Source: Geodia barretti
Lineage: Eukaryota
Length of the DNA: 27,459 bases
Reading direction: 5' to 3'
Assembly: GCA_030341885.1 (NCBI GenBank)
Contig: CASHTH010003779.1
Span: 72,806-100,264, forward strand
Position numbers and translations under genes: made by a program. The notes beneath the pieces were generated by a model. It was not told where the DNA came from, made no database searches, and saw nothing but the letters and a program-made list of their open reading frames with translations. How positions within the stretch are numbered: the stretch's first letter is position 1; each line of letters begins with the position of its first letter. Below, in pieces: positions 2,034 to 26,946 of the stretch.

Positions 2034-2102
2034 CTAAAACGGACACAAACCGAACTTTCAAACATGTGTATATTATAGTGGGCTAGGGAAGCTATTACTG
2101 AC

Positions 2103-5092: not shown

Positions 5093-5308
5093 GGTCGGCG
5101 AGTCCTCCATTAGATATATACAGTGAAACCTCTGAAAAAGGGACACGGTCGGCGAGTCCTCCATTAGATATATACAGTGAAACCTCTGAAAAAGGGACAC
5201 GGTCGGCGAGTCCTCCATTAGATATATACAGTGAAACCTCTGAAAAAGGGACACGGTCGGCGAGTCCTCCATTAGATATATACAGTGAAACCTCTGAAAA
5301 AGGGACAC
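5093..5308. repeat. 54-bp minisatellite, 4 near-perfect copies, in intron 1 of the Calx-beta gene
   Basis: Unit ggtcggcgagtcctccattagatatatacagtgaaacctctgaaaaagggacac is repeated head-to-tail. Because the period is a multiple of 3, it generates long artefactual ORFs on both strands. Confidence 0.9.
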
Positions 5309-6540: not shown

Positions 6541-6719
6541 CTATTTATCGGCCGTTTCTTGTTCGATGAAATCCTTGGCGGCCTCTTTGCTGACTGCGTT
6601 GATGTGACTGACTTTGTTCTGGAACTTGACTCCGTAGCACTTGTCTGCCACCTCCACCAGCTCGGGTCTGAAGGTCGTCGTGATGAACTGGGCATTGTCC
6701 GCCAGTCTGTGGATCATGG
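6541..6719 (-). CDS. SMC3: SMC3 exon 29 (D-loop/H-loop, stop TAG)
   Basis: Acceptor aatgcag|, peptide (A)MIHRLADNAQFITTTFRPELVEVADKCYGVKFQNKVSHINAVSKEAAKDFIEQETADK*. Confidence 0.8.
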
Positions 6720-6978
6720 CTGCATTGGTGGAGACAGAATGGGCCTCTCTGACATACAAATGTGTGTATACTGCAGGGTGTAAATAATATGGCAAAACTG
6801 AGCAAAAACTGAATTCACTACAATGCATGCAGAGAAGCTACCACTTCCATCTACAACATGAGCGTTTCATTCTAGCGTTGAAGGAAAAATTCACTAGTAA
6901 CTTCAGCCACCACGAAGATTCTTGTCTAATTTTAAAGGTGGTATATAGAGTTTCTATTATGAGGTGTAACAAGGCTCA

Positions 6979-7590
<612 letters not shown>

Positions 7591-7906
7591 TTATCATTAT
7601 TCATACAGCTGTTGACAACACAGTGAATCACACACATAGAGGGTATGGCGTAGAGAAAGCTTCAGGTATGCGAGGAATGTTGTTCCAACAGATGAGCAGG
7701 TCATTGTGTGTGGTAGGGCAGTGGCTGGTACTAGACCAGACATGTTTGGGCCCACTTCCTGCTACTTTACCTAATACACACACAGGGGGGTGATGGATGG
7801 ATGGTGTATCCCAGCACTGTGACTCATTCGCACCAATACAGAGGACAACAGTTAATCCACAGTGGGAACACAGAGCAGGCTCACAACTGTGATTCCCTGG
7901 AGTTCA

Positions 7907-8320
<414 letters not shown>

Positions 8321-8324
8321 TCAC

Positions 8325-8411
8325 CTGACTGAGGGGCAGCCCCTGGTACTTATCAAAGGCGTCTGCAGGCAGTGAACCAAGTTCCCTGATCTTACGCATA
8401 CTCTCCTCTTT
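8325..8411 (-). CDS. SMC3: SMC3 exon 24
   Basis: Peptide [29 protein letters not shown], matching human [23 protein letters not shown]. Confidence 0.8.
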
Positions 8412-8599
8412 CTACGAGAAACAAAACACTGGCAGTGAATCGTGTCGTGTGGTTTTCCCGGAGTACGGTGATCTACGTAGCCTCGTTCCCAGGCCTTCCA
8501 CGTGAGAGAGAAGGCCTGGGGACGAGACTAGTACTGTTATCCCCAAATACTAAAGCTTCAAAATCTGTGACGATTTTTAAAAGTGAGTGTGCGATGAAC

Positions 8600-8760
8600 C
8601 TTCTTGAGGAGGAGGCTGCGTTTGTTGGCCAGTTTCTCCATGGCCTTGGCCTCTTCCTCGATGGAGTCCAGCTGCTCTCTCTCCATGGTTTTCCACTTGT
8701 CCAGAGCCGTCTCTTTCTCCTTGATCTTCTTACCGTGATCATCCACACTTGCCACCACCT
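8600..8760 (-). CDS. SMC3: SMC3 exon 23
   Basis: Peptide (E)VVASVDDHGKKIKEKETALDKWKTMEREQLDSIEEEAKAMEKLANKRSLLLKK. Confidence 0.75.
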
Positions 8761-8986
8761 CTGCAATAAACCACCAGCACACTCTCTCACACCCTCACCA
8801 ATCTCACAAACCCTTTTTTCACTCTGAGAACTAGAACGATATTCGGCAAGTAATTAATGAAAGCAAGCCTATATGGATGTTCGAGCATGTGGACTGTCAG
8901 TGCGATAGTGTTGGAGAGAAAAGTTGAAATTTAGACGACTAAGCAGGCCTTGGATTTGCTCGCCTGGCCCAAGAGTGGTGTCTGAC

Positions 8987-9170
8987 CTTCCAGTCGTGAG
9001 CGAGTGGTGTTGATGGTGGTACAGAGATGCTCCAGCTCGGCAGTCTGCATCTCCAGTTCCTGGCGATGGTCGGCCATCGAGAGCTCCTCCATCTCCTGCA
9101 CCAGCTGCTCCTTCCTGCGCAGGAGGTTGCTGGACAGCAGGTTCTCCAGCTTGTTCTTCTCAGTCTCCAA
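8987..9170 (-). CDS. SMC3: SMC3 exon 22
   Basis: Peptide LETEKNKLENLLSSNLLRRKEQLVQEMEELSMADHRQELEMQTAELEHLCTTINTTRSRLE, donor G|GTCAGA. Confidence 0.75.
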
Positions 9171-9474
9171 CTGCACAACGTGGGTGGGTGGAGTGTAGTT
9201 GGCAATGTGACTGCTGGCAGCATAATGAAAGCAGAAACTTTATCCACAACCTGATCCTTCTTGGTACTACGTTATAATATGCCGACTAATACAGCACTGC
9301 TAAATATTGAACACTGCGAAACACTTGGTGATGTTAGTAGAAGGCTTCATTGTATACTAAGTACAGTATTCATATGGATGGGCAGTTACAAATGTAGGTG
9401 CATTGGACTATGATGCTGACAATACTATAGATGTATGGGACTATGACAGGGAGATGTCACGTAGAACAAAGTAC

Positions 9475-9546
9475 CTCTGTTCTCTCTCTGAGACACTCTT
9501 TTAGCTGCTGTTGTAGAGTCTGAACCTCTTCCCCCAATCTCTCCAC
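9475..9546 (-). CDS. SMC3: SMC3 exon 21
   Basis: Peptide VERLGEEVQTLQQQLKECLRERTE, 72 nt. Confidence 0.7.
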
Positions 9547-9611
9547 CTGTGCATACGTACGTACGCAACACTACAGTCACATGCATAACGATAGGGGCCA
9601 ACAGAAGTCAT

Positions 9612-9972
9612 ACAACACAACGGAAGAGGGTCTTTGCTATCAGTTTCAAAGTATGTATGTCTAATAGGCATGTGTGTATGTCTCACAATACAACAGAAGA
9701 GGGTCTTTGCTATCAGTTTCATGTGTAATAAGTCTAATAGGCAGGTGTGTATGTCTCACAATACAACAGAAGAGGGTCTTTGCTATCAGTTTCATGTGTA
9801 ATAAGTCTAATAGGCATGTGTGTATGTCTCACAATACAACAGAAGAGGGTCTTTGCTATCAGTTTCATGTGTAATAAGTCTAATAGGCAGGTGTGTATGT
9901 CTCACAATACAACAGAAGAGGGTCTTTGCTATCAGTTTCATGTGTAATAGGTCTAATAGGCAGGTGTGTATG
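9612..9972. repeat. 73-bp tandem repeat, about 4.9 copies, in the SMC3 intron between exons 20 and 21
   Basis: The unit ...acaatacaacagaagagggtctttgctatcagtttcatgtgtaataagtctaataggca(t/g)gtgtgtatgtctc recurs at 9685, 9758, 9831 and 9904. Confidence 0.9.
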
Positions 9973-9995
9973 CCTCTGTGCCAAGTTGTACATAC

Positions 9996-10115
9996 CTCAG
10001 ATTGTTCTCCAGAGTTGAGTTGAGAGAGGAGTTCAGTGCCCAGCTCAGCTGTGAGGGTCCCCAGAGCTCCTTCCATTGACTGGATGTCAGTCTCCTGTGA
10101 TGCCAGTGACTGCTC
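9996..10115 (-). CDS. SMC3: SMC3 exon 20
   Basis: Peptide EQSLASQETDIQSMEGALGTLTAELGTELLSQLNSGEQSE, matching the human region ...LKAELGTDLLSQL... Confidence 0.75.
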
Positions 10116-10127
10116 CTATTTAATGCA

Positions 10128-10151
10128 GGGAGAGAGAGAGAGAGAGAGAGA
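10128..10151. repeat. (GA)n microsatellite in an SMC3 intron
   Basis: gggagagagagagagagagagagag. Confidence 0.9.
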
Positions 10152-10181
10152 TGTCAGAGCAAGCTTGGTGTGTGAAACTAC

Positions 10182-10263
10182 CTTTGGTTCTAGTGCCCTC
10201 CTGTTTGCCTGAAGCTCCTTCGTAATGGTCCTGATGTCCATCTTCTGACGCTCAAAAGTCTCC
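10182..10263 (-). CDS. SMC3: SMC3 exon 19
   Basis: Peptide (K)ETFERQKMDIRTITKELQANRRALEPK. Confidence 0.7.
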
Positions 10264-10319
10264 CTGGGAAATGAAGCCCGTCACTCAACAATACTAGTTG
10301 ACAGAGAACAGTTACGTAC

Positions 10320-10389
10320 TTGAGTTGTATCTGCTTCGTTTCAGTCTTCTGGAGGTCTCCTAGGACCTGAGTGACTTTACCCTCCAGCT
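10320..10389 (-). CDS. SMC3: SMC3 exon 18
   Basis: Peptide (Q)LEGKVTQVLGDLQKTETKQIQL, donor AA|GTACGT. Joining exons 17 and 18 gives ...HQLDQLEGK..., matching conserved ...EIDQLMNQ... Confidence 0.75.
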
Positions 10390-10935
<546 letters not shown>

Positions 10936-11150
10936 CTAACACACAGACAGATACCAACCTCCACACACAGTCGAGCCCCTCTCTAAGAAATTCTCTTAAT
11001 AGCAACAACTTTTGAATAGTTAGTTGTGCTTGAAATAAGGACACCTCACTAATATCCACACACTGTCTTTTTGTACCATTGGTGTCCCAATTAGAGATGT
11101 TCCACTGTAGCCCAAACAAACCTCCATGGTTCTAATACATATATACGTAC

Positions 11151-11295
11151 GTTCTTGGCGTTGGGATACTCCATGCGGGGAGGGTTGAGTTTGTTGAGCG
11201 GCAGGAAGGTGACCTCTCCGGGCAGTTTCTGTTTGTTCATGATGGAGAGGATCTGGGAGGCCGTGCGGTCATTGTCCACTATCACATGGAACAAT
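11151..11295 (-). CDS. SMC3: SMC3 exon 15 (hinge)
   Basis: Peptide (R)LFHVIVDNDRTASQILSIMNKQKLPGEVTFLPLNKLNPPRMEYPNAKN. Confidence 0.8.
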
Positions 11296-11478
11296 CTGCA
11301 AGACAGACAAGAGAAGATCATGGATAACATATACACATATCTACAGTATGTATCTTCACTTAGTAAGTAAGACACTACACGTGTGATGTCCATGCACGGT
11401 CCCTATGGCAGTAATGGTACAATTTGTTTTCCAAAATGTTTTGGGGGAATGTTTACTGACTAAATGTTTGAGACAGAC

Positions 11479-11615
11479 CTATTTCCAGCTGTGACCTCAA
11501 CGGCAGTAAAGACACGAGGTTCGCACGTGAAGTTCTCTAGAAGAGGGCCGTAGACTCCGCTCATCTGCTTCTCCTCCACTACCCTCTTGACTGAGTCCAG
11601 CCCCCTGTTAACTGC
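11479..11615 (-). CDS. SMC3: SMC3 exon 14 (start of hinge)
   Basis: Peptide AVNRGLDSVKRVVEEKQMSGVYGPLLENFTCEPRVFTAVEVTAGN, matching the conserved FECEPAFYTCVEVTAGNR region. Confidence 0.8.
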
Positions 11616-11693
11616 CTGCACACACACCACACAACAACACGCACACAGATATGGCAGTGTTAGTCGAGCGTCTGTTGATAGACTGGTGTTTAC

Positions 11694-11793
11694 CTTTCCT
11701 ATGGTGCCTCGAAGGTTTCGTTCACATTTGGCGAGTTCGTCTCTGGCGTTCTGGATGGTCTGGTCAATCCCCGCCTCCCTTCGCCACAGCTCT
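11694..11793 (-). CDS. SMC3: SMC3 exon 13
   Basis: Peptide (K)ELWRREAGIDQTIQNARDELAKCERNLRGTIGK, donor AAG|GTAAAC. Confidence 0.75.
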
Positions 11794-11900
11794 CTGCCGC
11801 ACACAAGAGAGAGGTACAATACCCAGCAATAGAAACTGTACACATTTTCATACTGTACGGCAGGGAGTCTGTGTTCTGAGAATGCTGGTGAAATACTAAC

Positions 11901-12004
11901 TTTCTCTCGTTGGTGAGGTCATCCCTCCTCAGCTTCAGCTGTGCGTGCTCTCGGTTGGCTCGGTCGATGGCCTCTCTCCTCTGCTCCAGATCCTCCCCAC
12001 GCTC
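11901..12004 (-). CDS. SMC3: SMC3 exon 12
   Basis: Peptide ERGEDLEQRREAIDRANREHAQLKLRRDDLTNER, donor AA|GTTAGT. Confidence 0.7.
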
Positions 12005-12068
12005 CTGTCGTTACACACCAATCACTCTCAACAGGTCCACGCAACCAGCACGGTATATGTATATGTAC

Positions 12069-12404
12069 CTTGATGTCCCGCTCCTGTCGTTTCACCTTGG
12101 CCATGCTCTGCTCCACGTCCTGGTGCAGCTGGGCCAACTGTCTCTTCTTGTTCTCCAGAGACTCTGACAACGACCCTGCCTCCCTCCTGATCCACACGTC
12201 CCTCTCGTCAACGTTGGCAAATTGCTGTCCGCGGCCCTGCTTGGCGAAGAGTTCCGAGCGTCGCTGTTCGCAGGCCTTCAGCCGAGTGTTGAGCTGTTCT
12301 TCCTCCGTCTTTTGCCGTGTGTAGCGGGGGAGGAGTCTGCCGAGCTCCTTCTGTCGTTTCTCGACCGTCTTCCCAAGCTGGGTCAGTTCTCGCTGACAGC
12401 TCTC
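12069..12404 (-). CDS. SMC3: SMC3 exon 11 (336 nt)
   Basis: Peptide ESCQRELTQLGKTVEKRQKELGRLLPRY...AKQGRGQQFANVDERDVWIRREAGSLSESLENKKRQLAQLHQDVEQSMAKVKRQERDIK. Contains the conserved AKQGRG motif. Confidence 0.75.
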
Positions 12405-12555
12405 CTGAATAGTTCAACACACACCAATACTCCCATCACACACTACGATACACCTGCAAAGCCTATTGCACATATCCTCCAAAACTATGCCTTCCAGTTT
12501 GATTGCGTTTGAGTCCCACATAGGTGTAGTTGATATGCACTTGCCTTGTGTTTAC

Positions 12556-12713
12556 ACTCCCTGATTCATATATATATATATATGTACTATATGTACCTCA
12601 TGCACTCCCTGATTCATATATACTATATTGTACCTCATGCACTCCCTGATTCATATATACTATATTGTACCTCATGCACTCCCTGATTCATATATACTAT
12701 ACGTACCTCATGA
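12556..12713. repeat. 37-bp tandem repeat, about 4 copies, in the SMC3 intron between exons 10 and 11
   Basis: Unit cactccctgattcatatatactatattgtacctcatg. The first copy is expanded by a (TA)n run. Confidence 0.8.
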
Positions 12714-12812
12714 GAAACATATATACATAAAGGACTAAGGCCTGAATAACATCCACAGCACTATGTATGTAGTCACTATACCTACTGTGTTGTGTTCACA
12801 CAGATACAGTAC

Positions 12813-12977
12813 CTTGGATTTCTTGTCGTCCACGAGGCTCTCCTCCAGGTCCTTGACGTCAAACTCCAGCTTGGCCCTCTGTCTGATCATCTCCTGGTCG
12901 TCCTCGGCCAACTGCTGCCTCTCTGACTGGAGGGTATGCAGGGATACCTCAAGCTCCTTCACCTCCCTCTCTAGAGA
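12813..12977 (-). CDS. SMC3: SMC3 exon 10
   Basis: Peptide SLEREVKELEVSLHTLQSERQQLAEDDQEMIRQRAKLEFDVKDLEESLVDDKKSK. Confidence 0.75.
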
Positions 12978-13040
12978 CTGTGACAGGGAGGGAGGGAGGG
13001 CAGTCAACAGTGGTGGGAGTCACCTGTGGGGAAGTTTTAC

Positions 13041-13121
13041 CTCTATTTTCGACCGAGCGGCTGCAATTTTTTCGTTCCTCTCTCTTGACCCCTCCTTGCT
13101 GCCTTTACGAGCATCCTCCAG
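13041..13121 (-). CDS. SMC3: SMC3 exon 9
   Basis: Peptide LEDARKGSKEGSRERNEKIAAARSKIE (coiled coil), donor GAG|GTAAAA. Confidence 0.7.
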
Positions 13122-13790
13122 CTGTGCGTGTGTGTGAGAAAGCAAATCAGGAGCTAACGTTAAGAGCAAAACTCATCACTCACAACAGTTTGAGCCCCAC
13201 CCACCCACACCACACAGTCATTGTGCTCATGTCACACAACATTTCCGTGATCAATGTTATAGTGATGCCCGGGGAATCACCTCCACATATTTGGAAGATA
13301 CACACACACACAGACAGACATGGGAGTACTCGTTGCAGCTATGCAAGCACTAGCAACAGGACAATGTACACACTATACGCCGGCCGGCATGAATGGTATG
13401 CAGTGACACCGCAGATAAAGTATTCACGCAATGATAGGTATGAATACCGCTATGTACAATGCACAGACCCAACAAATAGGCGATGACACAGATCATTCAC
13501 AACGAATATGCACAGTGTACGGACTTGACACTAGACACGGCTCAGTACTCGCAGTCTTCAACCACGAGAGATGTGTCTACTGTGAGGAGAGCCAGGGTGG
13601 GCAGGAAGCTCACGGGGCTAGCATTGGTCCTGGACTGACCCAACCTCCTGTACACCAGGTCAGCAAGTCTCATAGGCTACACTTTAATAAAAGTGGGCGT
13701 GGCACATGCATGGTAGATAAACAAGTTGTCAAGAGCTTCCCTCTCTTTCTCTCTCCCTTCTTTCTCTCAGTCTTCTGTAAGGTAGACATA

Positions 13791-14735
13791 ATGGCAGCAG
13801 GAGCCACAGAAAGCAGAGAGGCCCGCAGTAGAGAAGGCAGCTCCTGCCTGTACTTCTTCTATGACTGTGAGGGGTCTGGAGGCAGTGCTATCAGGGACCA
13901 GATGATCGAGGTGGCAGCGGTGGTGATGACAGAGAACCTAGGGCTGGAGCCAGGCGATGCTGAAAGACTCGGAGCAGCTCACTACTCCTCCTTGTGTCGG
14001 TGCAGCTCCGAGATCCAGGAGGGGGCGTGGCTGAAGCACGGAATCGACAGGGAGTCACTCGCCCACGAGAGACCGGTGGGAGAGGTCCTGGAGGAGATGT
14101 TTGATTGGCTGGGAGAGAGAGCGAAGGAGGTGGAGAGACTGAAGCAGAGATCGTACCAGACCGTACTGGTAGCACATGGAGGAATAGCCTTCGACTTCCC
14201 ACTGCTAGTGACAGAGGTTAAGAGGAGTCACTGCGAGCCGAAGTTCAGAGACATGAACTTGCAGTTTGCCGACACACACGTCCTGTGTCAGCAGTTGAAG
14301 ACTGCCGGGGACCCAGTCCTACGAGGTAGCACAAAACTCTCAGTCTCAGAGCTACAGTCTGTCTATTTCCCTACTGCGGAGGAATCGCACCCAGACGGCC
14401 AACCGCACAGAGCTCTCAGCGACGCCGTGACACTCAGGAGAATGTTTACACAGACGCCGCTCTCTGCCCAGATGAGCCAGTTGGGGCTGGTATCCACCGA
14501 GGACCTCGTCCAGCGCTGGCAGTTGTCTGACGACACTCACCAGTTGAGCGAGAGTCTGGGGCTGCACAAGCAGAAGGCCAGGTCACTGGTGAGGCAGGGG
14601 GAGAGCCTGATAAGACTGGAGGAGCGGTTTCGTGGGAGTGGCTGCAGTGAGCAGTGGCTGAAAGAACACCTGCGCAGTCTGGGGGTGAAACGACCTGGGC
14701 AAACCTGTCTCCAGCACTTCAGAAAGATTATATGA
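13791..14735 (+). CDS. Intronless TREX1/TREX2-like DEDDh 3'-5' exonuclease (314 aa), nested antisense in SMC3 intron 8
   Basis: One continuous ORF with a Kozak-like gacataATGG start. It has Exo I LYFFYDCEGSGGS, Exo II VLVAHGGIAFDFPLL (TREX hallmark LVAHNG..DFPLL) and Exo III SHPDGQPHRALSDAVTL (H-x4-D, similar to TREX1 SPPDSHTAEGDVLAL). It also has a roughly 100-aa C-terminal extension of unknown type. Confidence 0.75.
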   Translation: MAAGATESREARSREGSSCLYFFYDCEGSGGSAIRDQMIEVAAVVMTENLGLEPGDAERLGAAHYSSLCRCSSEIQEGAWLKHGIDRESLAHERPVGEVLEEMFDWLGERAKEVERLKQRSYQTVLVAHGGIAFDFPLLVTEVKRSHCEPKFRDMNLQFADTHVLCQQLKTAGDPVLRGSTKLSVSELQSVYFPTAEESHPDGQPHRALSDAVTLRRMFTQTPLSAQMSQLGLVSTEDLVQRWQLSDDTHQLSESLGLHKQKARSLVRQGESLIRLEERFRGSGCSEQWLKEHLRSLGVKRPGQTCLQHFRKII

Positions 14736-14845
14736 ACACCCACGCTTATCCATGGGCACAGCATAATCACAGGCAACCATATCTAAATCATATAGTCTTA
14801 TCAATCTGTTGATCCTCTACAAACTAGTGTGTACACCAACCATTA

Positions 14846-15363
<518 letters not shown>

Positions 15364-15438
15364 TTACCCATGCAAAACCTTTCAATCTTGTGTGAATCAT
15401 GGGGTGTTAACAAGTACACATATCACACAAAATAATCA

Positions 15439-15642
<204 letters not shown>

Positions 15643-15649
15643 TTACTCA

Positions 15650-15933
<284 letters not shown>

Positions 15934-15937
15934 TCAC

Positions 15938-16005
15938 GTGCAGCAGCTGTTGTCTCTCCTCTGGGCGCATGTGACTGAACTCATCACTCAAGACAAACTG
16001 AATAG
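15938..16005 (-). CDS. SMC3: SMC3 exon 3
   Basis: Peptide AIQFVLSDEFSHMRPEERQQLLH, donor CAC|GTGAGC. Confidence 0.8.
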
Positions 16006-16058
16006 CTAAAACAGAGACACACACAGGCGCATAAATTTAAAAGATTCATGACACATAC

Positions 16059-16097
16059 CGTAGAAGAAATTGCTTTTTCCAGAGCCATTCCTCCCGA
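16059..16097 (-). CDS. SMC3: SMC3 exon 2 (Walker A: VGRNGSGKSNFFY)
   Basis: Acceptor ttgtacag|, P-loop GRNGSGKSN, donor G|GTATGT. Confidence 0.75.
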
Positions 16098-16158
16098 CTG
16101 TACAAAATAAAAGGGGAGCAGTAAAAAGTGTTCACTCTATTCCAGCACACACACTCAC

Positions 16159-16240
16159 CGACGACATTGTTTTTGGGACTGAAGGGTTCGATGACTGTCT
16201 GGTCTCGGTAGCTCCGAAACCCGTGAAGAATGACCTTCAT
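16159..16240 (-). CDS. SMC3: SMC3 exon 1 (an ATG at 16240 gives MKVILHGFRSYRDQTVIEPFSPKNNVV; an upstream in-frame ATG at 16267 is the alternative start)
   Basis: Matches the SMC3 N-terminus pattern M..K.VII.GFRSYRDQT. Donor G|GTGAGT. Confidence 0.7.
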
Positions 16241-16267
16241 TAGGGGAATCACCAGAGTAGCATACAT

Positions 16268-16830
16268 TATTAGGTGGGTGTGGCTTTCTCATTCCAGCAG
16301 CCCGGTTTGCAAAACACATTCATGGACGCGCGTGTCCCTTCGGGAGACTGCAGGCTAGACTAGCGGTCTGGTTTGCTGCATGCAAGGACACGCTGGCTAG
16401 CGCCCGCAAAGTAAGCGGCCAGCGGGGTCAAAGGGCGAAGTCGAAGCTTTACCTGCTTGATATGCATGGCGGGAAGCTTCGCGGGCAGCGGTCGTCTCGT
16501 CAGAGGTTGGCTGGGATAGGGGACGGCTCTGTTGGTCCACTAAGACAAGTGCCAGATCGAGGCTACATAGGATATCGGGAGCAGTTGCCTTCTTTCCCGC
16601 CAAAAGTCGAGGCGGGGATAAGAAATTTAGAAAACTATGGATCATTGATTTTCGGCTATTTAGAATTGACAATATACGGTCAAGCACGTTGTCGTCGCGC
16701 GCAATCAAATTTTCGCGCTTTTGATCGACCAATCAGAGCGAGACACCTAACAAGGTGGGTATAAAGTTATTTATCAGCCAGTGCTTTCCTCACCCCTAAA
16801 CTGTTTCCATCTCTTTGTACAGGCTTCACA
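16268..16830. promoter_or_regulatory. Bidirectional (head-to-head) SMC3/SIL1 promoter region, CpG-rich
   Basis: Lies between the divergent start codons (SMC3 16240/16267 minus, SIL1 16831 plus). It has dense CpG, a CCAAT box at 16729-16733 (gaccaatcag), TATAAAG at 16760-16766 and an E2F-like TTTCGCGC at 16711-16718. Confidence 0.55.
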
Positions 16831-17741
16831 ATGGCTGTTAGAGGTGCCTACCTTATAGTGGCGGCATCGCTAGTCATGATGCTTCAATGCTGTAACCATG
16901 TCTGTGTCTGTGAAGAAAATGGCATTTCTGAAGACTTTGAGGACGACGATCTCTCTCTGGAGGTTGAGGACGAAGAGGAAGCAACGCTCAGCGTCTTTGA
17001 GCCAACTCGCGAATGGAAAACGGTGGAGGAAGGTCAGGCAATCCCCGCGGGGCTCCACGTCCGAATGAACATGGAGACCGGTAAAAACGAGGCGAAACTT
17101 ATGGACGACGTCGCCACAGATAGGGAGAGCGAGAAAACGACCGATAAGGGTGGGGGGTCTGAAACAAGAACACCACAGCCTAAAACACCTCCTCCAGCAA
17201 ACCAGAAGAGAGGTGACACTGGGCCTTCTCCAGGGTTCTTCTTCCAGGGAGACCAGCGAAGGGCACACTACTACGGCCACAGCGACAGGAGAGGGATCAT
17301 AAACCTTCGCCGACGGATGTTGACTCACAGAGACGTGGCCGCAGCACTCAGGAAGATTGACGAGAACAATGCCCAAATCCCCAAGAGGCCCCCTGGGATG
17401 ATTACTCATTCCCGGCCGGCTTCTGGTGGCTCCTCCTCTCCGTCGCAGAATGTAGTGACTGCAGGGGTCCAACAGGAGGGAGGTGGTGGAAGGATGGAGA
17501 GGCCGATGCACCGAGAGCTGTCAGAGATGCTGCAACACACAAAGACGCTCGCCAGGAAGTCGGTGACCGTCCCGGAGCTGCTGCAGGCCCTGGAGGAGCT
17601 CGAGTACCACGTCCACCACATTGAGAATGCCAAGGAGCTGAACTCCATCGGAGGGCTGGTGGTGGTGGTGAGACTCCTCAACCACACACACCCCGACGTC
17701 AGGAGCAGTGCTGCCCATGTCATCGGTGCCGCAACACAGAG
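16831..17741 (+). CDS. SIL1: SIL1 (BiP nucleotide-exchange factor) exon 1: start codon, signal peptide, long first exon
   Basis: Starts [21 protein letters not shown]. The stretch [36 protein letters not shown] matches human SIL1 [36 protein letters not shown]. The stretch [23 protein letters not shown] matches [23 protein letters not shown]. Donor AG|GTACTT. Confidence 0.8.
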
Positions 17742-17875
17742 GTACTTACTACTATTTGTGTAGCCATCTTCCCAATGCCTGGCGTACATCTGATGGGAAA
17801 TGGCTACAGGACAGTGTTGGGTTTATTTTGCCAAACGACAGCATGGTTTACTGGCCCTGTTACCTGTATCTGCAG

Positions 17876-18729: not shown

Positions 18730-19010
18730 CGTTTTAGAGTCACCAATCATGCTATTTCCAATCATGCTATTTCATCACGTGTTGACCCTGCCACATGACT
18801 TTGATGATTTCCTTAAAAAAATCATTACCTGCAGATGTAAAAACTCCAGTTGTACAGTATTATACTGCAGCATTCAAAGGATGTGGTGACAGAACGGGAG
18901 AGAAAGAGGAGAGAGCAGGCGAGGGAGGTATCAAGAGGTCGAGCCCAACTCATTGAGAAGAGTTAACTGCTGGACACTAGAGAGTCCTACGGTCTCTCTT
19001 ACTGAGTTAG

Positions 19011-19214
19011 TCACCGACCGCAGCTGAGGAAGAAAGAGAGATGAGGGGGAGAGAGGGAAACGAGACAATGTGTGAGGAACCGGTTTACTGTCCTCACCAG
19101 TTGTGTGAAGAAAGCTGCTTCGTTCAGTTTCTCTGCGTACTTGTCGAAATGGTCCAGGTTGTCTTGCAGTTTCAGAGTCAGCGTGTCGTAGTTGCTCCTC
19201 ACAACCTCCAGAAC
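19011..19214 (-). CDS. DYM: DYM-like last exon (stop)
   Basis: Acceptor tctcag|. Peptide [47 protein letters not shown]...*, matching the dymeclin C-terminus [48 protein letters not shown]. Confidence 0.65.
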
Positions 19215-20881
19215 CTGAGATTAGTCATGCAAATCACACGTTACATAACCCCAGCACAATCTGTGGACACCGGCACAGTGTGACGCGCAAATAGCACCGG
19301 ATTTCTTCAGGTATGCCTCATTCTGTGAAAATTAGATTCCCCTAGTGCAGCCTATTAACATACAGGTTCACAAGAAGCCAGAAGATCCACTGAGATTGCT
19401 CTGTGAACAAGACTTCCCCACTCCACTATTACTAAGAGCGAGTCTCATACATGCGTATATACCTGCTCTGGAGTTATGGAGGTGACGTGATGGCTGGCGG
19501 ACCAGGCGTTGATGCGAGGGTGAAAGTGAGCAGAGATTGATCTGACGTTCACCAGGTTCGCGGCGAGCTGGCTGGCACTCGAGTGGAACTCACTGTGGGC
19601 ATCTGGACTGGAGTAGCGCTTGGCTGCAGAGATGGAACACCCCAAACAATGAGGGCTCTTTAACACATTGGAACACATCAATTGATTCACTAACACACAA
19701 TATGTAGAAAAAGTCACCAAACAAGAAGTGGCAGTCCAATTTACCAATTGGGCCACTTAGTCTGCAGGACTTCTGCTTTAAACATTGGGCCAAGTACATA
19801 TGCACAAGATGCAGTGTCATGAGCGTTCAGTCGAGGCCTCACCCATTGAGTGGACGTCCTCAAAGATCTTCTGCATGCGGATCAGTTCATAGTAGAGCTC
19901 GTCGTAAGTGCTGGGATTGGGCAGGAAGGTGTCTCCGTAGGTTATGAACAGATTGAAGATCTTGACCACCTGTTGTGGGAGGGAGACAGAACTACGTATG
20001 CTGTATGCACCACTAGCCAATGGTTACTGTTGCATGTACTATACTATAGAGAGTACTGTTATGTGTAGAATAGTAGCAAGGGGCACTGACCTCAATTGCA
20101 ACCGCAAAGATGTTCAGCTTTGGGAGAAGGTGTTCCTCGCTGGCGGCAAAGAACTTGAGCAGATTCAGCAGACCTTCATTTTCGTACATTAGAATTCAGT
20201 GTCAGTTGACACACAGAGGGAGGGAGGTCAGAACGCGATGTGACTCACCGACCCACAGCTCCTTCCAGTTGTAGTTGAGTCTTATCTTGCAGCGCTTCTG
20301 GTAGCACAGCATCCGATGGACCACTCCCAGACACTTTCTACGCACACCACAAACCAAATTCACACACTTTCAGCGGCCGTGTATACTATATAGACCTGTA
20401 CAGGTCGAGCTTGAAGTTCTTTGCCATGTGACTGATCATGAACTCTACCATCAAATCTGAAACACGTTCGGCACTCGAAACTTTCCAAACGTTAAATGAA
20501 CTACTTAAGACAGGGGCTCACCTAGCAGGGAGCATGCCAGAGGACGAACGTGAGACAGACCGTCTTTGGTCGGCTTTCTGTGCAGCAGACTCTTCAGACA
20601 GAAATTGAAAGACAGAGAGCAAACATTAACTTTTCTCAACACTACTGGAACATTACTGAACGTATGGGCCACTCACAGCTCTGTGTAGGGTGACTGGGAA
20701 TGTCATGTTGGGGTCGTGGAGAAATGAGTTGGCAAACTGATCCTGTGTGGAGGAGGTGTGGACAGCTCAACAGCTACTGTCCCCTGCCACATGCTAGCTG
20801 TATGATCAGTGACGTACCTCGACAATACAGGTGATGATGACAAGACAGAGACGTGCATGGGTGACAGATGAATCATCTGGC

Positions 20882-20905
20882 AGAGAGAGAGAGAGAGAGA
20901 GAGGA
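20882..20905. repeat. (GA)n microsatellite in a DYM intron
   Basis: agagagagagagagagagagagag. Confidence 0.9.
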
Positions 20906-22006
20906 GAACAAACAAAAAGAGGAAGGTGATTAAAGGGAAAAGGGTTCTGCATGTACAAACCTTTAATGTTCTGGAGAATGATGGACGAGAAGGTAAAGAA
21001 AGTTCCCAGAAGGTTGGTTGGCTGGGGGAGTCCAGTTGGCTGCTTGCCAGCTGGTGTAGTTGGTGAAGATGGCACTGTGGTACACGTACACCGTGCATGA
21101 GAGAGGACACGGGAGTAAAGGGGTTAAGTTCTCACGTGGGAGGGATCTGTCAATGGCGGGGTTGGGAGTGGTGGGGGTGACTGGATTGGAAAGTGACTTA
21201 GTCTGCAGAGAACCGAAAGTGACACCAATAAAAGACTCGTCCAACTAAGCACACTCTTCCTCTCCTATTACAGCTTCCCCTTCCCTCTCTCTCTCTCTCT
21301 TCCCCCTCCTCACGTGAGTCAAGACTGTGATGAAGTTCCTGTTGAGGTGGATGGCCTCGTACAGCACCAGCAGCACAGCCATGTCAATCTTGACTCTGGT
21401 CTGCGAGGTATCCACCGGGACCAGCATGTTACTCACGAAGCTGCTGATGTGACCAAATATTCCGACCGGCTCCTCAGTGGGCGGAACATACTTCCTGTGT
21501 ATCAGAGAATGGAAAGATAAGAGGATGGAAACATGGGAGCACGAAGTCCTGAGAGAACTAGTGTGTGTGTGAGCGAGGTCTGTTACAAGATTAGAGAGTC
21601 TTACTTGTTGTATTCTGTCAGTACTGAGGATACTACACTACCCAGACCCTGGGGGAAACGGAGTGGGCTAACACACCTCTCAATTACTCGGTTTCTTAAC
21701 TCACATGCAGAGCAATCTCATCGTCAAGAACCGACAGTTTTATCACGTACGGGTTGGCAGCCTGCACAAACGGAACCGGTCACAAAGATATGCATGAGAC
21801 TCAAAGCTAAGGCACTGAGAGATGCATCTACAGTATGTATATTATATGTACCTCATACTTGCGGTAGTTGACCAGAAGCGTTAGTACCACCACTGCATCG
21901 TAGCCATGCTGGTCCCTGAGATCAGGTACTGACAGGAGCTACAGCCAAGAAGTACACACCGCATCACGTGTTGTTTCAGACGGTGTGTTGTGTGGGGGGG
22001 ACTAAC

Positions 22007-22128
22007 GTGCATGATTGTCTCAAAGACACTGTTCATCATGACGTACTCCAGCAGCATGTTCTGGCTGATGTTGTCCATGGCGGTCAGCATGACCAGGAGA
22101 AGACGCAGACACAGGTTCTTGAGGCTGG
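22007..22128 (-). CDS. DYM: DYM-like internal exon
   Basis: Peptide (A)SLKNLCLRLLLVMLTAMDNISQNMLLEYVMMNSVFETIMH, donor CAC|GTTAGT. Confidence 0.5.
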
Positions 22129-22761
22129 CTGCAGCACGGGAGAGAGAGGGAGCACACTTGTTTACTAATAGAGAACGCGTCTGTCAAACACGGGATCCAC
22201 ATGCCTACACTTGTTTGCTTTGCCTTGCCTTTCTACCTTGTTTATGTCTCGATCGTGCATACCTGGATAGTCATGGACGAGGAACTTGTTCAGTGCTTCA
22301 ACCAGATTCTGTGAAAGAACAAACACACAAAACAACAGGGCTTCTGATAGAATTCATCAACAGAACCCCACTACACTACAGCTTCATTAACATCACGATC
22401 ACATAGAGATCCTCTGAGAGTATCAATTTGAAGCCACGCTCACTCTCATCTGGCATTCGGCCGAGTCAAATCCTATCACCACATCAATCACGTCGAAACT
22501 CGAGTCACTGAGTTTCTTATCAAACGTGGACCGCAGGAGGACACACAGTGTCTTGAGGGAGTAAAGAAGAGAGGGAAGGGGTGGGGGGTGAAGATATCTA
22601 CAGTAGTATACTCACCTGCAGGGCATTGATGTTTCTGATGACATTATCGTCCAACTGAAGCGTTGTGCAGCACTGAACAAACAGCAGACTTAGCGATTTC
22701 TATGGAAAGGCAGAAAGAGAAAACGCTATATACAAGGCTCAATATTATACATACTCAATAC

Positions 22762-22827
22762 CTTCAGCGAAATAAGTTCCCAGGTTTTCATTTCGGACAT
22801 TGTCGTTTGGAAATACTGGATGTTCAC
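22762..22827 (-). CDS. DYM: DYM-like exon 3
   Basis: Acceptor cggcag|, peptide VNIQYFQTTMSEMKTWELISLK, donor AAG|GTATTG. The reading frame is continuous with exon 2. Confidence 0.45.
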
Positions 22828-22880
22828 CTGCCGATGGAGCGCAACAGTACACACAGCACACAGCCATTAGGAGAGCTTAC

Positions 22881-22937
22881 TTTGAGGAGGAAAAACTCCT
22901 CCCAGAAACGGGGATTCCCCTGCGAGGGATCCTCGCC
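22881..22937 (-). CDS. DYM: DYM-like exon 2
   Basis: Peptide GEDPSQGNPRFWEEFFLLK, matching the dymeclin N-terminus SENDPFWNQLLSFSF. Donor AAA|GTAAGC. Confidence 0.6.
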
Positions 22938-23010
22938 CTGGTCGGTGGTGCATGAGGAAAACAGATGTGCTCTAATAAGAAGAAACGGCTAAGAGGGAGT
23001 CGGTGCAAAC

Positions 23011-23184
23011 CTTGAAGAGCTGCTCATAGTACGTTATGAGCTTCTCCTTGAGCGGCTTTCGCTCGCCAGGAATGCCCTTCCGCAGCAGCGTAGGGGAGTG
23101 GGTAGGTCGCCGCGGAGAAGAGAGGCCTTCTCCTTCTTCGTTGATAGCTGACATGAGGTCTACCGGGCTGGACGTATAACACAC
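23011..23184 (-). CDS. DYM: DYM-like exon 1 (start at 23184 or at 23154, MSAINEEG...)
   Basis: Peptide ...GERKPLKEKLITYYEQLFK, donor AAG|GTTTGC. The start codon is ambiguous. Confidence 0.5.
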
Positions 23185-23445
23185 GTACGTGGGAGCTTCG
23201 AGCCTTCGACCACTTCCCGCGTGCGCTACCCCGGGTATTTCCCGCGAGCGAACTCAAAGCTCAAAGGTCATTAACGTTAGTGGTTGTTGCTTTTTTCTTT
23301 GTGTGTGGATGTTTACATGAACTATATGGGAGTGAGAATGTACACAAAATCACACACACATAAGATTACGCTAGATCTATATTTGCTGCGAAGGGTGGCG
23401 TGTGACAAGTTGAAGTAGTAAAAAAAGAAAAGCGGGCAGAGAAAG

Positions 23446-23642
23446 TCAGAGTTGTGATTCGGGCTCCCAGAAGCTCTTCATGGTGGACTTGACGGGCCAG
23501 AGGTGGGCGACGGCTATGCCGGGGACGCTCCGGCCAAACACAAGAGGAGCAACTTCCTTCCACCCCTCCTCCTCTGGATTGTACTTCTCCACTACATCCA
23601 CTGTCTTGACTCCGTTGTAGCCACCGATTGCATACACTTCAC
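23446..23642 (-). CDS. KLHL exon 6 (last kelch repeat, stop)
   Basis: Peptide (G)EVYAIGGYNGVKTVDVVEKYNPEEEGWKEVAPLVFGRSVPGIAVAHLWPVKSTMKSFWEPESQL*. The six exons total 1926 nt, giving 641 aa. Confidence 0.8.
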
Positions 23643-23975
23643 CTGGTAGAGAAATAGAAAGTAAAAGTCATTCTCAGTAACACTGGGTGTTGTGTGGACT
23701 ATTATATGTGCACACGCAGTCTTTAACCAGTTTCCAAAATTTGGCTGGTCTTTTTGTTGTCACTGACAACAAAAATTAGCGATAGACAACCCAACCATTT
23801 GTGAACATCAGAAACAGCTTGACAAATCCTATATTCAATCTCAAGTCGTTCAGAAAAAGGTTTGTATGTAAATTTCACTACGTAGCTACATAATTCCATT
23901 CCTAATCACAGACAAACATTTAATTTAATTGCCAGTTCTAAAAACTCCTTGAAATTTCCCAGCATTGCCACTAAC

Positions 23976-24083
23976 CCCTGAGTGCAGTGACAGCCACACC
24001 GGTCCGACTATGGTGCATGGGAGCAATGAGACTCCACTGGTTGGCCACCGGGTCAAACCTCTCCACTTCACACAGCCACTGGC
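23976..24083 (-). CDS. KLHL exon 5 (kelch repeat)
   Basis: Peptide QWLCEVERFDPVANQWSLIAPMHHSRTGVAVTALR, donor G|GTTAGT. Confidence 0.75.
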
Positions 24084-24302
24084 CTGAGAGAGAGAGAGAG
24101 GGATAATTGTAAGCCTTTCAGACCTGTTGCTCCTAAAACTAAATGGGCAAGCAAAGTAAGCACACCTAGTAGAACTATTAATCTATATGGCACGACCGTA
24201 ATGGTTTACTTAATTCTAACTTGCGTACGCTCCACTGTATTACATCCATTCTAGTACACACACATACTGTGACCTGACCCACTGCAGTTAGAGTATGCTA
24301 AC

Positions 24303-24506
24303 CTGAGTCGTAGCCTCCTACAGCATACAGACAGTTGTTGAGGGCAGTCACGCTGGCTGCCCCTCGACTGCGGTGCATGGGAGGCATGTCTTCCCACTCG
24401 TCCCTCTCTGGGTTGTAACGTTCCATGGAGTTGAGGTTGGAGCGAGTCCCGTCGTCCCGATTGCTTCCTCCCACTGCGTACACCAGGTTCTCTATCACTG
24501 CCACTC
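24303..24506 (-). CDS. KLHL exon 4 (kelch repeat)
   Basis: Peptide VAVIENLVYAVGGSNRDDGTRSNLNSMERYNPERDEWEDMPPMHRSRGAASVTALNNCLYAVGGYDS, donor G|GTTAGC. Confidence 0.8.
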
Positions 24507-24559
24507 CTGCCGAGGTATAATACATACAGTGTACAGGACATTTATATTTATTGACTCAC

Positions 24560-24777
24560 CGACATTCCTACGAGGGGTTTTCATGGGTGCAATCTCAGTC
24601 CACGTGTCCAACTGTATGTCGTACTTCTCAGCCGTCCCCAGAATTGACTTGCCGCTGTAGCCACCAATGGCGTATATGGCATTGAAAGACACTCCGGTCA
24701 CGGCATCTCTCATGTCCCGGATTGCCCCCACACCCAGGTTCATACGGGGAGTCAACATGTGGGCCACTGGGGTCCAC
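24560..24777 (-). CDS. KLHL exon 3 (kelch repeat)
   Basis: Peptide (R)WTPVAHMLTPRMNLGVGAIRDMRDAVTGVSFNAIYAIGGYSGKSILGTAEKYDIQLDTWTEIAPMKTPRRNV, donor G|GTGAGT. Confidence 0.8.
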
Positions 24778-25022
24778 CTGCACACAGAGATATCAGAATT
24801 ACAGAATTATAGAAGGGAAATTCAAAATGTCTGTCTGTATAGAACAACAAACAATGATGGGAGTTTCAAATGGAACAAGTTGACATTGCACGTGAATTTC
24901 CTTCAAAGTTAATTCAGATGACACTAGGACAAGTGACAAAATCTACATATCACCACTCAGTCATGGAGGGCAGATTTAGAAAGACAAACAACAGAACATG
25001 ACAGTGTGTCTACATTATGCAC

Positions 25023-25233
25023 CTCTTGGTCCTGGGGTTGTAGCACTCCACTGCATCGGTACTGGTCTTGCCCTCCAGGTACCCGCCAATGGCAAACAGG
25101 AGACCCTGGAGAACTGCCACGCCCACTCCGCTCCGGCGATACCTCATCTGAGGGATGACGTCGACAACCCAGCGATCAGTCTCCGGGTCGTAGCACTCCA
25201 CGTTGCCCAGGGTTTCGTGCTCCGACACTCCTC
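25023..25233 (-). CDS. KLHL exon 2 (kelch repeat)
   Basis: Peptide GVSEHETLGNVECYDPETDRWVVDVIPQMRYRRSGVGVAVLQGLLFAIGGY...NPRTK, donor AG|GTGCAT. Confidence 0.8.
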
Positions 25234-25958
25234 CTGTGTGACAGACAACGAGCGTATCACGTCTAGCTACATACTGAGAGACTCAACTGAGGCAGTATAT
25301 GTATACACTCACAATGAGGATGTGTATATATAGCACACTAACCCAAAACGAAGGATTGTGAAAAATGAAACACTACTGAATAGCCGCACATATGTACATA
25401 CACAATGTATGCACAGTAAATTGCCATACATTGCGGAGAGTCATTTCTCAATACCAAGACCAGTGGACTATGGACGCACTCCCCTATTTAGGAAATCTGG
25501 GAGTATTTTCAGAGTAACTTGCTAACACTACAAAAAGTGTGTGCTGGTAGAAAACTGCATGACTGGTGAAAAAGGCATGTTAGCGACCGTGCATTAAACA
25601 TTATGATAACGGTGTTGTTGATTCAGAGCATGCCAAGTAAATTGGGATCTCAATGCAGGCGTAGGCAGAGTTTCACGTTAGGAGTTCCTTACAGGAGCCA
25701 ACTATGTGACGAAGACACACAAATATGGCACATATATTATACCAACACCACTCTATTCTCTACATTATAGAGATGACACACACACAACACTGACAAGACA
25801 CTCATAATGGCATAGACTGATGCATGCCGTTTAGGTATGTGTCTCATTTATATACACAGCATGCATGCACCATGTACTAGTGCAAAAGTACCGTAAGCAG
25901 CCATGTTTTTGTGAATTACGGTAGCACACACAACTGAGGACTGTGAGAGATACTGTAC

Positions 25959-26946
25959 CTAGAATGTGGATGACTTCGCCGGCTCTCAGGGTCTCCCGTG
26001 GCCACCACTTCATTGGGATCTGGGTGGGGAGCCGGCACAGGTGGGCCATGCCATCGGGGTAGGATGTGTTATAGAGTGCACGTGCAGCCTCGCGGATGAG
26101 TTTCATGCACGGCTCATTGGAGCTGACGAGGGAATTGGCCGCCACCTCCACTGCAAAGAACTCCTGGCCTAGGAGAGGGAGTTTGACGAGGTTCAGGAGC
26201 TCCTGGAAGTGGGTCTGTCTCTCGGGGAAGTTGTGCTGGGTCCATGTTATGAGGGCCGTGAACACTGCCTCTTCCCCGTCCGGGAGATGGAGGTCGTTGG
26301 AACTCAAAAAGTGCTTCATGCGGGCATAGGAGATGTGCACGAAACGCTCGTTCTGTGAGACCTCGGTGAAGTTTCGACGGGAGAAGGTGAGCGATGCCTC
26401 CAGGAGCTCCTGGCAGGATTGGAACTCGGCAAAGTCGGCAACGTCGAGACACACGGAGCAGTCCAGCCGGTCCTGCAGGAACTTGCAGCAGGCCTCGCGT
26501 GCCCGGAGCATCTGGAGAAAGTTTGACGCTGCCAGGAGGCTCTGCGCGTTCTCCTCGTTTATCTCCAGCGCACAGGTGTAGGCAAACTTTATGAGGAGGG
26601 CGAGGGCGTCTGAATCGACGCCCTGTATCACAACCCTCCGCTGTCCGCTCTCGGCCATCTGTCGACAGAACATGGCTCTAAAGTACATACTGGAGGCTGC
26701 CAGGACCACTCTGTGGGCTCTGAAACACTGCTGATCCACGACCAGCTCCACGTCGCACAGCTCCTCGTTGCGACGGAGCTGCTCCATGCTCTCCAGCGTC
26801 TCCTTTGGGAGACTCTCGTCGACAAAGTTGGGCATCTTGAGCTCCGAGAGAGGGGGAGGTGGGTGCTGCTGTGTCTGCTGGGTGCTCTCACTGAGCTGGG
26901 TGGAAGGGTCAGTGTGTGATGTGTCCATTGTAGAGTCCTCTTCCAC
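25959..26946 (-). CDS. BTB-BACK-Kelch (KLHL family) exon 1 (start codon, BTB and BACK domains)
   Basis: Starts MEEDSTMDTSHTD... It has a BTB core (LCDVELVVDQQCFRAHRVVLAASSMYFRAMF) and a BACK region. Donor G|GTACAG. Confidence 0.8.

Follow-up and report, generated by a model that had tools for sequence, protein, structure and literature searches.

TREX1, among the DEDDh 3′-5′ exonucleases, joins its catalytic domain to a polyproline-II helix, a C-terminal transmembrane or endoplasmic reticulum (ER) anchor and a disordered tail, and TREX2 consists of the exonuclease domain alone; both are obligate homodimers, with residues that act across the interface. Plex9 and gar PML are active exonucleases on single-stranded and double-stranded DNA (ssDNA and dsDNA), and Plex9/PML has been reported from jawed vertebrates only (PMC10123124). 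Exuperantia (Exu) of insects and the PXL domain of vertebrate PML-1 are pseudo-nucleases without the DEDD residues (bioRxiv 10.64898/2026.02.19.706916). A gene related to these systems was analysed here in a 27,459-nt stretch of the genome of the demosponge Geodia barretti (contig CASHTH010003779.1, positions 72,806 to 100,264; the whole stretch is hereafter termed the window), where it lies on the plus strand inside an intron of the minus-strand gene SMC3. Taken as a whole, the evidence makes it probable that this is a functional and independently transcribed G. barretti gene, antisense in its SMC3 intron, which encodes a two-domain exonuclease and has an ancient sponge retrocopy as its likely origin.

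The nested gene reads as an open reading frame (ORF) of 945 nt on the plus strand (13791..14735), running from an ATG at 13791 through 314 codons to a TGA stop at 14733-14735, and the frame proposed in the first-pass annotation was thus found present and intact. At the local sequence composition, an open frame of 314 codons would arise by chance with a probability of ~5e-7. An exact-sequence look-up returned an identical G. barretti protein, CAI8049214.1 (UniProt A0AA35TJK8), and the coding sequence (CDS) is further supported by the ORF list, by homologues and by ratios of non-synonymous to synonymous substitution rates (dN/dS). The ORF is confirmed as a real, intact protein-coding gene. It is already public, merely as a hypothetical protein (under the names ‘hypothetical protein GBAR_LOCUS27084' and ‘Exonuclease domain-containing protein'), and the DEDDh enzyme class is a known one. 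The GC content of the window (~49%) agrees with the 49.3% of the G. barretti genome, which was annotated with MAKER from RNA-seq and ab initio evidence (PMC10542158). The frame is also open further 5′, from an ATG at 13431 that would yield 434 aa. This extended product was rejected, as the extension has no Pfam match and a conserved TATA-like block is located inside it; the start at 13791 is preferred because homologues all begin at the internal Met (an ‘MA..' that matches 13791) and because of the position of that block. The public protein is likewise exactly 314 aa.

The N-terminal part of the protein (aa 23-214; 13857..14432, plus strand) was confirmed, from Pfam, AlphaFold2, Foldseek and profile searches, as a DEDDh (RNase_T or DnaQ-like) 3′-5′ exonuclease domain, with predicted metal-dependent activity. 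In the Pfam search for RNase_T (PF00929), which the first-pass annotation had proposed, aa 23-214 scored 34 bits (cut-off 24), and 30 of 30 aligned family members matched as well. All three motifs quoted earlier were found: Exo I, DCEGSG (aa 25-30; 13863..13880), with the metal ligands D25 and E27, both near-invariant in the 30 members; Exo II, LVAHGGIAFDFPLL (aa 126-139; 14166..14207), with the metal ligand D135 (codon 14193-14195); and Exo III, HRALSDAVTL (aa 206-215; 14406..14435), with H206 as the predicted general base and D211 as a metal ligand. All five DEDDh catalytic residues (D25, E27, D135, H206 and D211) are therefore kept. Across the 30-sequence alignment no variation is seen at D135, H206 or D211, nor at E40, L126, H129, G131, P137, D161, R207 or A208; D25 and E27 are kept in at least 90% of members.

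An AlphaFold2 model built from the family alignment formed a single confident body (predicted local distance difference test (pLDDT) 92, predicted template modelling score (pTM) 0.88); within it, the tail reaches pLDDT 93-98. Searched against the PDB by Foldseek, this model gave 207 matches at E<=1e-3, and all 50 of the 50 matches listed are DEDDh exonucleases, led by the zebrafish TREX1 homologue Plex9.1, with E. coli epsilon and TREX1/TREX2 next (E ~1e-8, 16-23% identity). When the family profile was compared with PDB sequences, the closest were 9l8a (a TREX-like ‘exodeoxyribonuclease III'; 1.5e-17), TREX2 (3e-15) and TREX1 and Plex9.1 (~1e-11); weaker matches were obtained to oligoribonuclease (2e-6) and E. 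coli epsilon (~1e-3), and the PolC-type exonuclease 2p1j matched the N-terminal half of the domain (E 1e-12).

With TREX1/TREX2 and fish TREX-like enzymes (PDB 9l8a, 6a45, 1y97 and 2o4g) the sponge protein shares the DEDDh set, the overall fold and a motif II of the form ‘LVAH(N/G)G..(F/Y)DFPLL', yet it differs in an identity of ~20%, in belonging to a family of its own of ~74 clusters and in its extra folded five-helix C-terminal domain. Neither a polyproline run nor a membrane anchor of the TREX1 type is present in the 314-aa sequence, and the C terminus is a soluble, basic five-helix domain. By eye, and not rigorously, no obvious conserved Arg was seen in the 30-sequence alignment at the position aligned with TREX1 R62. 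The motifs had at first been called ‘TREX-specific'. What stands of this is that the TREX group is nearest among solved structures; the specificity does not, given the low identity, the missing polyproline helix and anchor, and a single-sequence search that barely finds TREX1 (E=0.009, aa 120-217 only). On sequence grounds, the family appears to be a separate, uncharacterised one rather than a TREX orthologue, because identity is only ~20% and single-sequence searches do not connect it with TREX; the TREX/Plex9 group probably represents its nearest characterised relatives.

The C-terminal DEDDh exonuclease of Plex9.1/PML (PDB 9mrc and 9mrd) is the top Foldseek match of the whole model (E 1.9e-8, target-normalised TM 0.79), and the hemichordate family member matches it along the whole domain (E=7.5e-8). 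The identity is, however, 18%, and the sponge profile aligns with the C-terminal half of the Plex9.1 domain only. A special link to Plex9, hinted at by the hemichordate member, was considered and dropped, as the profile of cnidarian and deuterostome members ranks Plex9.1 low (E ~3e-4).

The remainder of the protein (aa 222-314; 14454..14732, plus strand) is a basic domain (pI 9.6) predicted to be a BAF-like, SAM-like or (HhH)2-like five-helix bundle. The first-pass annotation had described it as a tail with no obvious family and had proposed structure prediction; modelled alone, it folds as a five-helix bundle with pLDDT 85. The lack of a family is upheld: neither Pfam nor the PDB gave a significant sequence match for aa 222-314, also when a profile of 23 sequences was used. 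Nor is the tail a novelty of the lineage, being a folded domain common to the cnidarian, echinoderm and hemichordate homologues. Across the family this domain has a median pI of 9.5, compared with 5.9 for the remaining sequence. In a Foldseek fold search BAF ranked first, without statistical significance, and BAF and many HhH2 DNA-binding modules scored as well as or above SAM. The likeness to BAF and to the (HhH)2 modules of ERCC1/XPF, Hef, EME1/2, Topo V, the Pol beta 8-kDa domain and the NusA C terminus consists in two Gly hairpins between helices (two G-hydrophobic hairpins, LGLHKQKA and LGVKRPG, are found in the domain) and in the basic pI. It is offset by weak scores, 10-16% identity and the absence of any sequence-profile match, and DNA binding by the tail is predicted only.

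In its predicted module order, an exonuclease fold directly followed by a five-helix SAM-like bundle, the protein may resemble Exu and PML-1 PXL; the catalytic DEDD residues are lost there, whereas the sponge family retains all five. Exu was absent among the Foldseek matches listed, and neither Exu nor PXL was matched directly by structure or by sequence.

A search of 5.8 billion proteins returned 24 clusters at 40-100% identity, all of ~300-320 aa and all spanning the tail, and HMMER, run exhaustively over 1.84 billion representatives, gave 74 hits at E<=1e-3, of which ~30 are full-length (~300 aa) at 27-43% identity. Named relatives come from Nematostella, Dendronephthya, Anneissia and Ptychodera; both domains are carried by sponges, cnidarians, one echinoderm and one hemichordate. 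When the profile of the sponge set was compared with that of the cnidarian/deuterostome set, 272 columns that include both domains matched (probability 100%, E=2.5e-64). A rough neighbour-joining tree resolved a sponge clade A (to which the window's protein belongs), a heterogeneous sponge clade B and an outgroup of long cnidarian/deuterostome proteins. Automatic names for the family are ‘DNA polymerase III PolC-type-like' (NCBI pipeline) and ‘DNA polymerase III epsilon subunit-like' (JGI), and the literature found for assembly, run and PDB accessions held nothing relevant to this exonuclease family.

Several members depart from the common architecture. The C-terminal domain is missing from two of the copies at one related locus (L004, described below) and from several database members (P0025, P0032 and P0043). 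A 60% identical orthologue, P0005 (340 aa), carries a 13-aa tandem triplication, LQHTPHRALIDVE, across the Exo III His motif, so that the catalytic His-x4-Asp motif occurs in up to three copies. P0053 (773 aa), a distant relative, combines a SprT-like metalloprotease of the Spartan/GCNA type with the family's exonuclease domain, as either a real fusion or a gene-call merger.

For the nesting, genomic contexts of homologues were fetched (loci L002 to L015) and the exon peptides of the window were mapped onto each locus. The host intron (13122..14872, minus strand) holds the whole nested gene, and its length is 1,751 bp, as given by the canonical donor CAG/GTACGT at 14873/14872 and acceptor CACAG/CTGG at 13122/13121; this agrees with the 1.75-kb SMC3 intron, carrying a gene on the opposite strand, of the first-pass annotation. 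The exon directly 3′ of the intron (13041..13121, minus strand) encodes LEDARKGSKEGSRERNEKIAAARSKIEVK and was assigned by translation, by the spliced cDNA contig L007 and by the homologous exon in L002-L006. The exon directly 5′ (14873..15048, minus strand; the boundary at 15048 is approximate) was assigned by translation and by tblastn with a primate-like SMC3 guide, and its homologue flanks exonuclease copies in L002-L006, L010, L014 and L015. Approximately six to seven SMC3 exons lie 5′ of the host intron, and the gene extends over roughly 6553-16243 (minus strand), with neighbouring exon junctions confirmed by the RNA-derived contigs L007 and L008. A 601-aa concatenate of the window exons matches SMC3 of many animals, including G. 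barretti CAI8049212.1 at 98% identity. This record is a fragment of 348 aa and the only public G. barretti SMC3, and it shares one 100,264-bp contig with CAI8049214.1. The annotation of SMC3 as such a fragment suggests that the nested gene broke the public SMC3 gene model.

The position of the nested gene is shared widely. In 12 of the 14 related loci, representing approximately nine distinct genomes, the exonuclease lies between the same two SMC3 exons, of which one or both are in view, and on the opposite strand. Both flanking SMC3 exons are in view in L002 (one copy, 78% identical to the window's protein, in an intron of ~1.8 kb), L003 (one copy, 58%, ~1.7 kb), L006 (two copies, 57% and 32%, ~2.8 kb), L004 (three copies, 33-35%, ~7.3 kb) and L005 (one copy, 34%, ~9.4 kb). 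At the other loci the contig or the fetched flank stops before the second SMC3 exon: L007, L008 and L009 hold one copy at 92% identity, with the SMC3 3′ exon in view in L007 and L008 and the 5′ exon in L009; L010 holds one copy at 60%, with the 5′ exon in view; and L014 and L015, from two NCBI assemblies, hold at least five intact copies (28-36%) plus fragments in an intron of over 13 kb, again with the 5′ exon in view.

The surroundings are conserved as well. Collinearity with L002 and L003 extends over the whole window (a Calx-beta gene, SMC3, a Fes1/SIL1-like gene, an ARMH3-like gene and a Kelch gene), and the head-to-head order of SMC3 and the Fes1-like gene is kept in L004 and L014. The SMC3 exons of L003, L004, L005 and L014 are 69-84% identical to those of Geodia, versus at most 56% (L003-L005) or at most 75% (L014) to placozoan, coral, mollusc, priapulid and primate references, which fits an origin of the non-Geodia loci in other sponges. 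Since both clades occupy the SMC3 intron, the nesting would be older than the split between clade A and clade B. Thus, the nesting is ancient and stable, and the gene has been amplified in tandem from one to at least five copies. Tandem arrays in the same SMC3 intron elsewhere span 4783-10298 in L004, 1223-3264 in L006, 4352-12463 in L014 and 1803-2018 in L011. A host-intron ORF at 14180-14551 of L005 has a transposase-type RNase-H-like C-terminal domain (PF21789) and is probably transposon debris.

Both domains of the nested gene are under purifying selection. In pairwise Nei-Gojobori estimates for seven orthologue pairs, dN/dS was 0.11-0.24 over the nested CDS, at 0.10-0.20 for the exonuclease domain and 0.10-0.38 for the C-terminal domain.

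Conservation extends upstream of the coding region. A block in the alignment, TAATAAAAGTGGGCGTGGCAC (13685..13705, plus strand), consists of a TATA-like box and then a GC/CACCC-type box ~100 nt 5′ of the ATG, and it is invariant in six species with proteins just 57-92% identical to the window's. Every clade-A copy with upstream sequence has a single occurrence of the 13-mer AAGTGGGCGKGGC, 88-112 nt 5′ of the ATG; the 13-mer was not found upstream of clade-B copies. The block at 13685..13705 suggests a candidate promoter of the gene's own within the intron. Approximately 300 nt 5′ of the gene, further non-coding blocks, AATA..ACAATGC..GATGACAC..ATCATTCA (13443..13499, plus strand), were delineated by columns invariant in six species; they are not a known small nucleolar RNA or other known RNA, because Rfam and tRNA scans of the window and the intron returned no match. 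Downstream, a sequence scan identified ATTAAA (14842..14847, plus strand), 107 nt past the stop and inside the intron, as a candidate poly(A) signal, and AATAAA is found at the equivalent +105 position in L002. The CDS, the candidate promoter and the candidate poly(A) signal are all located within 13122-14872, as in a gene nested in full. A scan for bacterial sigma-70 promoters and terminators gave chance-level matches only, which are irrelevant to a eukaryotic gene.

The region was also found in RNA. L007, L008 and L009 are contigs of JGI sample 3300064085, from a sister Geodia species with 92% protein identity. L007 and L008 derive from RNA, as eleven SMC3 exon junctions are precisely spliced in them, and they run unbroken from the exon 13041-13121 into the intron and through the exonuclease ORF to 14841; the third contig, L009, is unspliced across 13462-14935. 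The RNA thus includes sequence of the host intron. L007 and L008 share a 3′ end at 14841, which was considered as a poly(A) site and rejected, since no signal lies upstream and L009 reads through.

With regard to origin, the single uninterrupted frame of the CDS, noted in the first pass as intronless, was borne out, and the coding sequence is uninterrupted in all sponge copies. The Nematostella homologue, by comparison, is a 10-kb gene with at least six exons over the same coding region, located between CCS, FKBP and DGK genes and not near SMC3. An ancient retrocopy origin is plausible because the sponge CDS is intronless while the cnidarian gene is split, and it is unproven because no scars of retroposition remain: neither a poly(A) remnant or A-tract, nor flanking direct repeats or target-site duplications, nor terminal repeats were found at the nested gene, as would be expected if the event was ancient. 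Hence ‘retro-copied', as the gene had been called, is plausible for an ancient event and fails for a recent one. As in other nested genes and retrogenes of animals, a whole gene lies in a host intron on the opposite strand, and its CDS is uninterrupted versus at least five introns in the outgroup homologue; this case differs in being unusually old and stable, in its intronic tandem amplification (with an intron of 1.7 kb growing to over 13 kb) and in the absence of scars.

Two other accounts of how the gene came to lie in SMC3 were weighed. In one, the gene would have been inserted recently, or would be an element that is still mobile or in decay, such as a retrocopy or transposon cargo, as the phrase ‘recently inserted' had implied. 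An intronless CDS in a genome of intron-rich genes would suit this account, as would the transposase-like ORF in the host intron of one related locus and the tandem amplification of the family. Yet the same intron is occupied in approximately nine genomes, in which the exonuclease falls from 92% to ~30% identity, and a recent insertion is excluded because this position is shared by genomes so deeply diverged; the gene's presence in the same intron of distant taxa had been named beforehand as an outcome that would argue against it. Purifying selection (dN/dS 0.1-0.25), the conserved upstream regulatory block and the lack of terminal repeats, target-site duplications and poly(A) remnants also speak against it, and the account is considered extremely improbable. 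The other account, in which the gene belongs to a bacterial symbiont and reached the contig through assembly contamination or recent horizontal transfer, is just as hard to credit. The high microbial load of the sponge Geodia (PMC10542158) lends it some force, and the automatic JGI name of the family hints at it; the best NCBIfam match is the Pol III epsilon model PRK06309 (E=3e-8, far under the cut-off), and the PolC-type exonuclease 2p1j resembles the N-terminal half of the domain. However, the gene sits in the intron of an animal gene, and the contigs, up to 0.7 Mb long, carry animal genes; its GC content equals that of the host, the scores of bacterial models are tiny beside their cut-offs (33 versus 245 bits), and the annotated genomes of cnidarians, an echinoderm and a hemichordate contain homologues, of which the Nematostella one has spliceosomal introns.

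The nature of the substrate allows for a closer contest. DNA, and within it dsDNA with a 3′ end, is somewhat favoured by analogy, because TREX1/2, gar PML and Plex9 degrade ssDNA and dsDNA and because most fold matches of the tail are DNA binders. The alternative is an RNA 3′-5′ exonuclease or RNA-binding factor in the manner of ERI1 (SAP plus DEDDh) or of Exu/PML-1 PXL, with a SAM-like bundle that reads RNA. UG-rich RNA is bound by the EXO plus SAM-like five-helix arrangement of Exu and PML-1 (bioRxiv 10.64898/2026.02.19.706916), three of the 30 members as well as the Ptychodera member give sub-threshold hits to Pfam Exu_RNase_H_like, and ERI1 is among the weaker profile matches of the cnidarian/deuterostome set. 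Nevertheless, the solved sequences nearest to the sponge profile are the DNA exonucleases TREX2, TREX1 and the TREX-like enzyme (E=1e-17 to 1e-11), the tail scores at least as well with BAF and many HhH2 DNA-binding modules as with SAM, and Exu/PXL are without the catalytic residues, all five of which the sponge family keeps. An RNA substrate is thus rated as unlikely, though far from negligible.

Several points weigh against the overall reading of an independently transcribed, anciently nested exonuclease gene. The RNA contigs are strandless and may be SMC3 pre-mRNA with a retained intron; a plus-strand mRNA cannot be told apart from such pre-mRNA because the contigs carry no strand information. 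The evidence for the ‘promoter' is a conserved sequence block. Retroposition is backed by neither a poly(A) remnant nor a target-site duplication, and introns lost in sponges or gained in cnidarians would leave an identical pattern. The non-Geodia loci were assigned to taxa from their sequences, and at one clade-B array (L012/L013) no SMC3 exon was found within 10 kb. Finally, the DEDDh fold by itself cannot separate DNA from RNA substrates, and enzyme activity is predicted only, for every family member.

Under the favoured reading of a nested, two-domain exonuclease gene, D25, E27, D135 and D211 would bind metals and H206 would activate water, so that the enzyme would trim 3′ ends in a two-metal reaction. 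The basic BAF/SAM/HhH-like five-helix domain would pack on the exonuclease and most likely grip the nucleic-acid substrate. An intronless-CDS copy, probably a retrocopy, would have settled in the SMC3 intron of an early sponge ancestor and stayed there, and would afterwards have split into two paralogue clades, with tandem amplification in some lineages. The persistence of the nesting may be caused entirely by the difficulty of relocating a nested gene. The combination of tandem expansion and deep divergence of paralogues is reminiscent of defence genes, although a part in cytosolic DNA degradation and innate immunity, as raised in the first pass, is speculation. In a broader proposal, the architecture of an exonuclease plus a SAM-like five-helix bundle, described to date only in the inactive Exu and PML-1 PXL, would have its ancestral and catalytically active form in this family, engaged in TREX/Plex9-type DNA clearing since the first animals. 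In sponges the gene would then have persisted for hundreds of millions of years in one SMC3 intron and been amplified there repeatedly, in the way of a gene for defence against foreign or retroelement DNA; this is speculative and regarded as doubtful.

Around SMC3, the window also includes a Fes1/SIL1-like gene (plus strand, first ORF 16831-17763), which is head-to-head with SMC3 at a distance of ~590 bp (16243-16831), as for a bidirectional promoter, and this adjacency is kept in L002, L003, L004 and L014. It is followed by an ARMH3-like gene (18900-23300, minus strand) and a BTB-BACK-Kelch gene (23400-26950, minus strand), the Kelch repeats of which are 96-99% identical to those of L003, though the exonuclease of L003 is only 58% identical. 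At the other end of the window, near-identical Calx-beta-domain exons at 281-643 and 2095-2433 (minus strand), ~1.8 kb apart, point to a recent internal duplication in the Calx-beta gene. Three tandem repeats were found: a perfect one at 5093-5308 (54-bp unit, 4.0 copies, 100% identical), with repeated peptides in ORFs of both strands; one of 73 bp x 5 at 9612-9976 (95% matches), which lies in an SMC3 intron, overlaps the edge of the exon 9904-10117 and is represented by one unit in RNA contig L007; and one of 37 bp x 3.6 at 12580-12712, in another SMC3 intron.

What is new here is an uncharacterised early-metazoan family in which an intact TREX-like DEDDh exonuclease is combined with a conserved basic five-helix domain that has no sequence family. 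Also new is a very old nested arrangement in sponge SMC3, a natural system for the study of nested-gene persistence and of the interplay of a nested gene with its essential host. The family is a concrete candidate for the clearance of cytosolic or nuclear DNA (or RNA) before the vertebrates, and it may represent the active counterpart of the Exu/PML-1 architecture.

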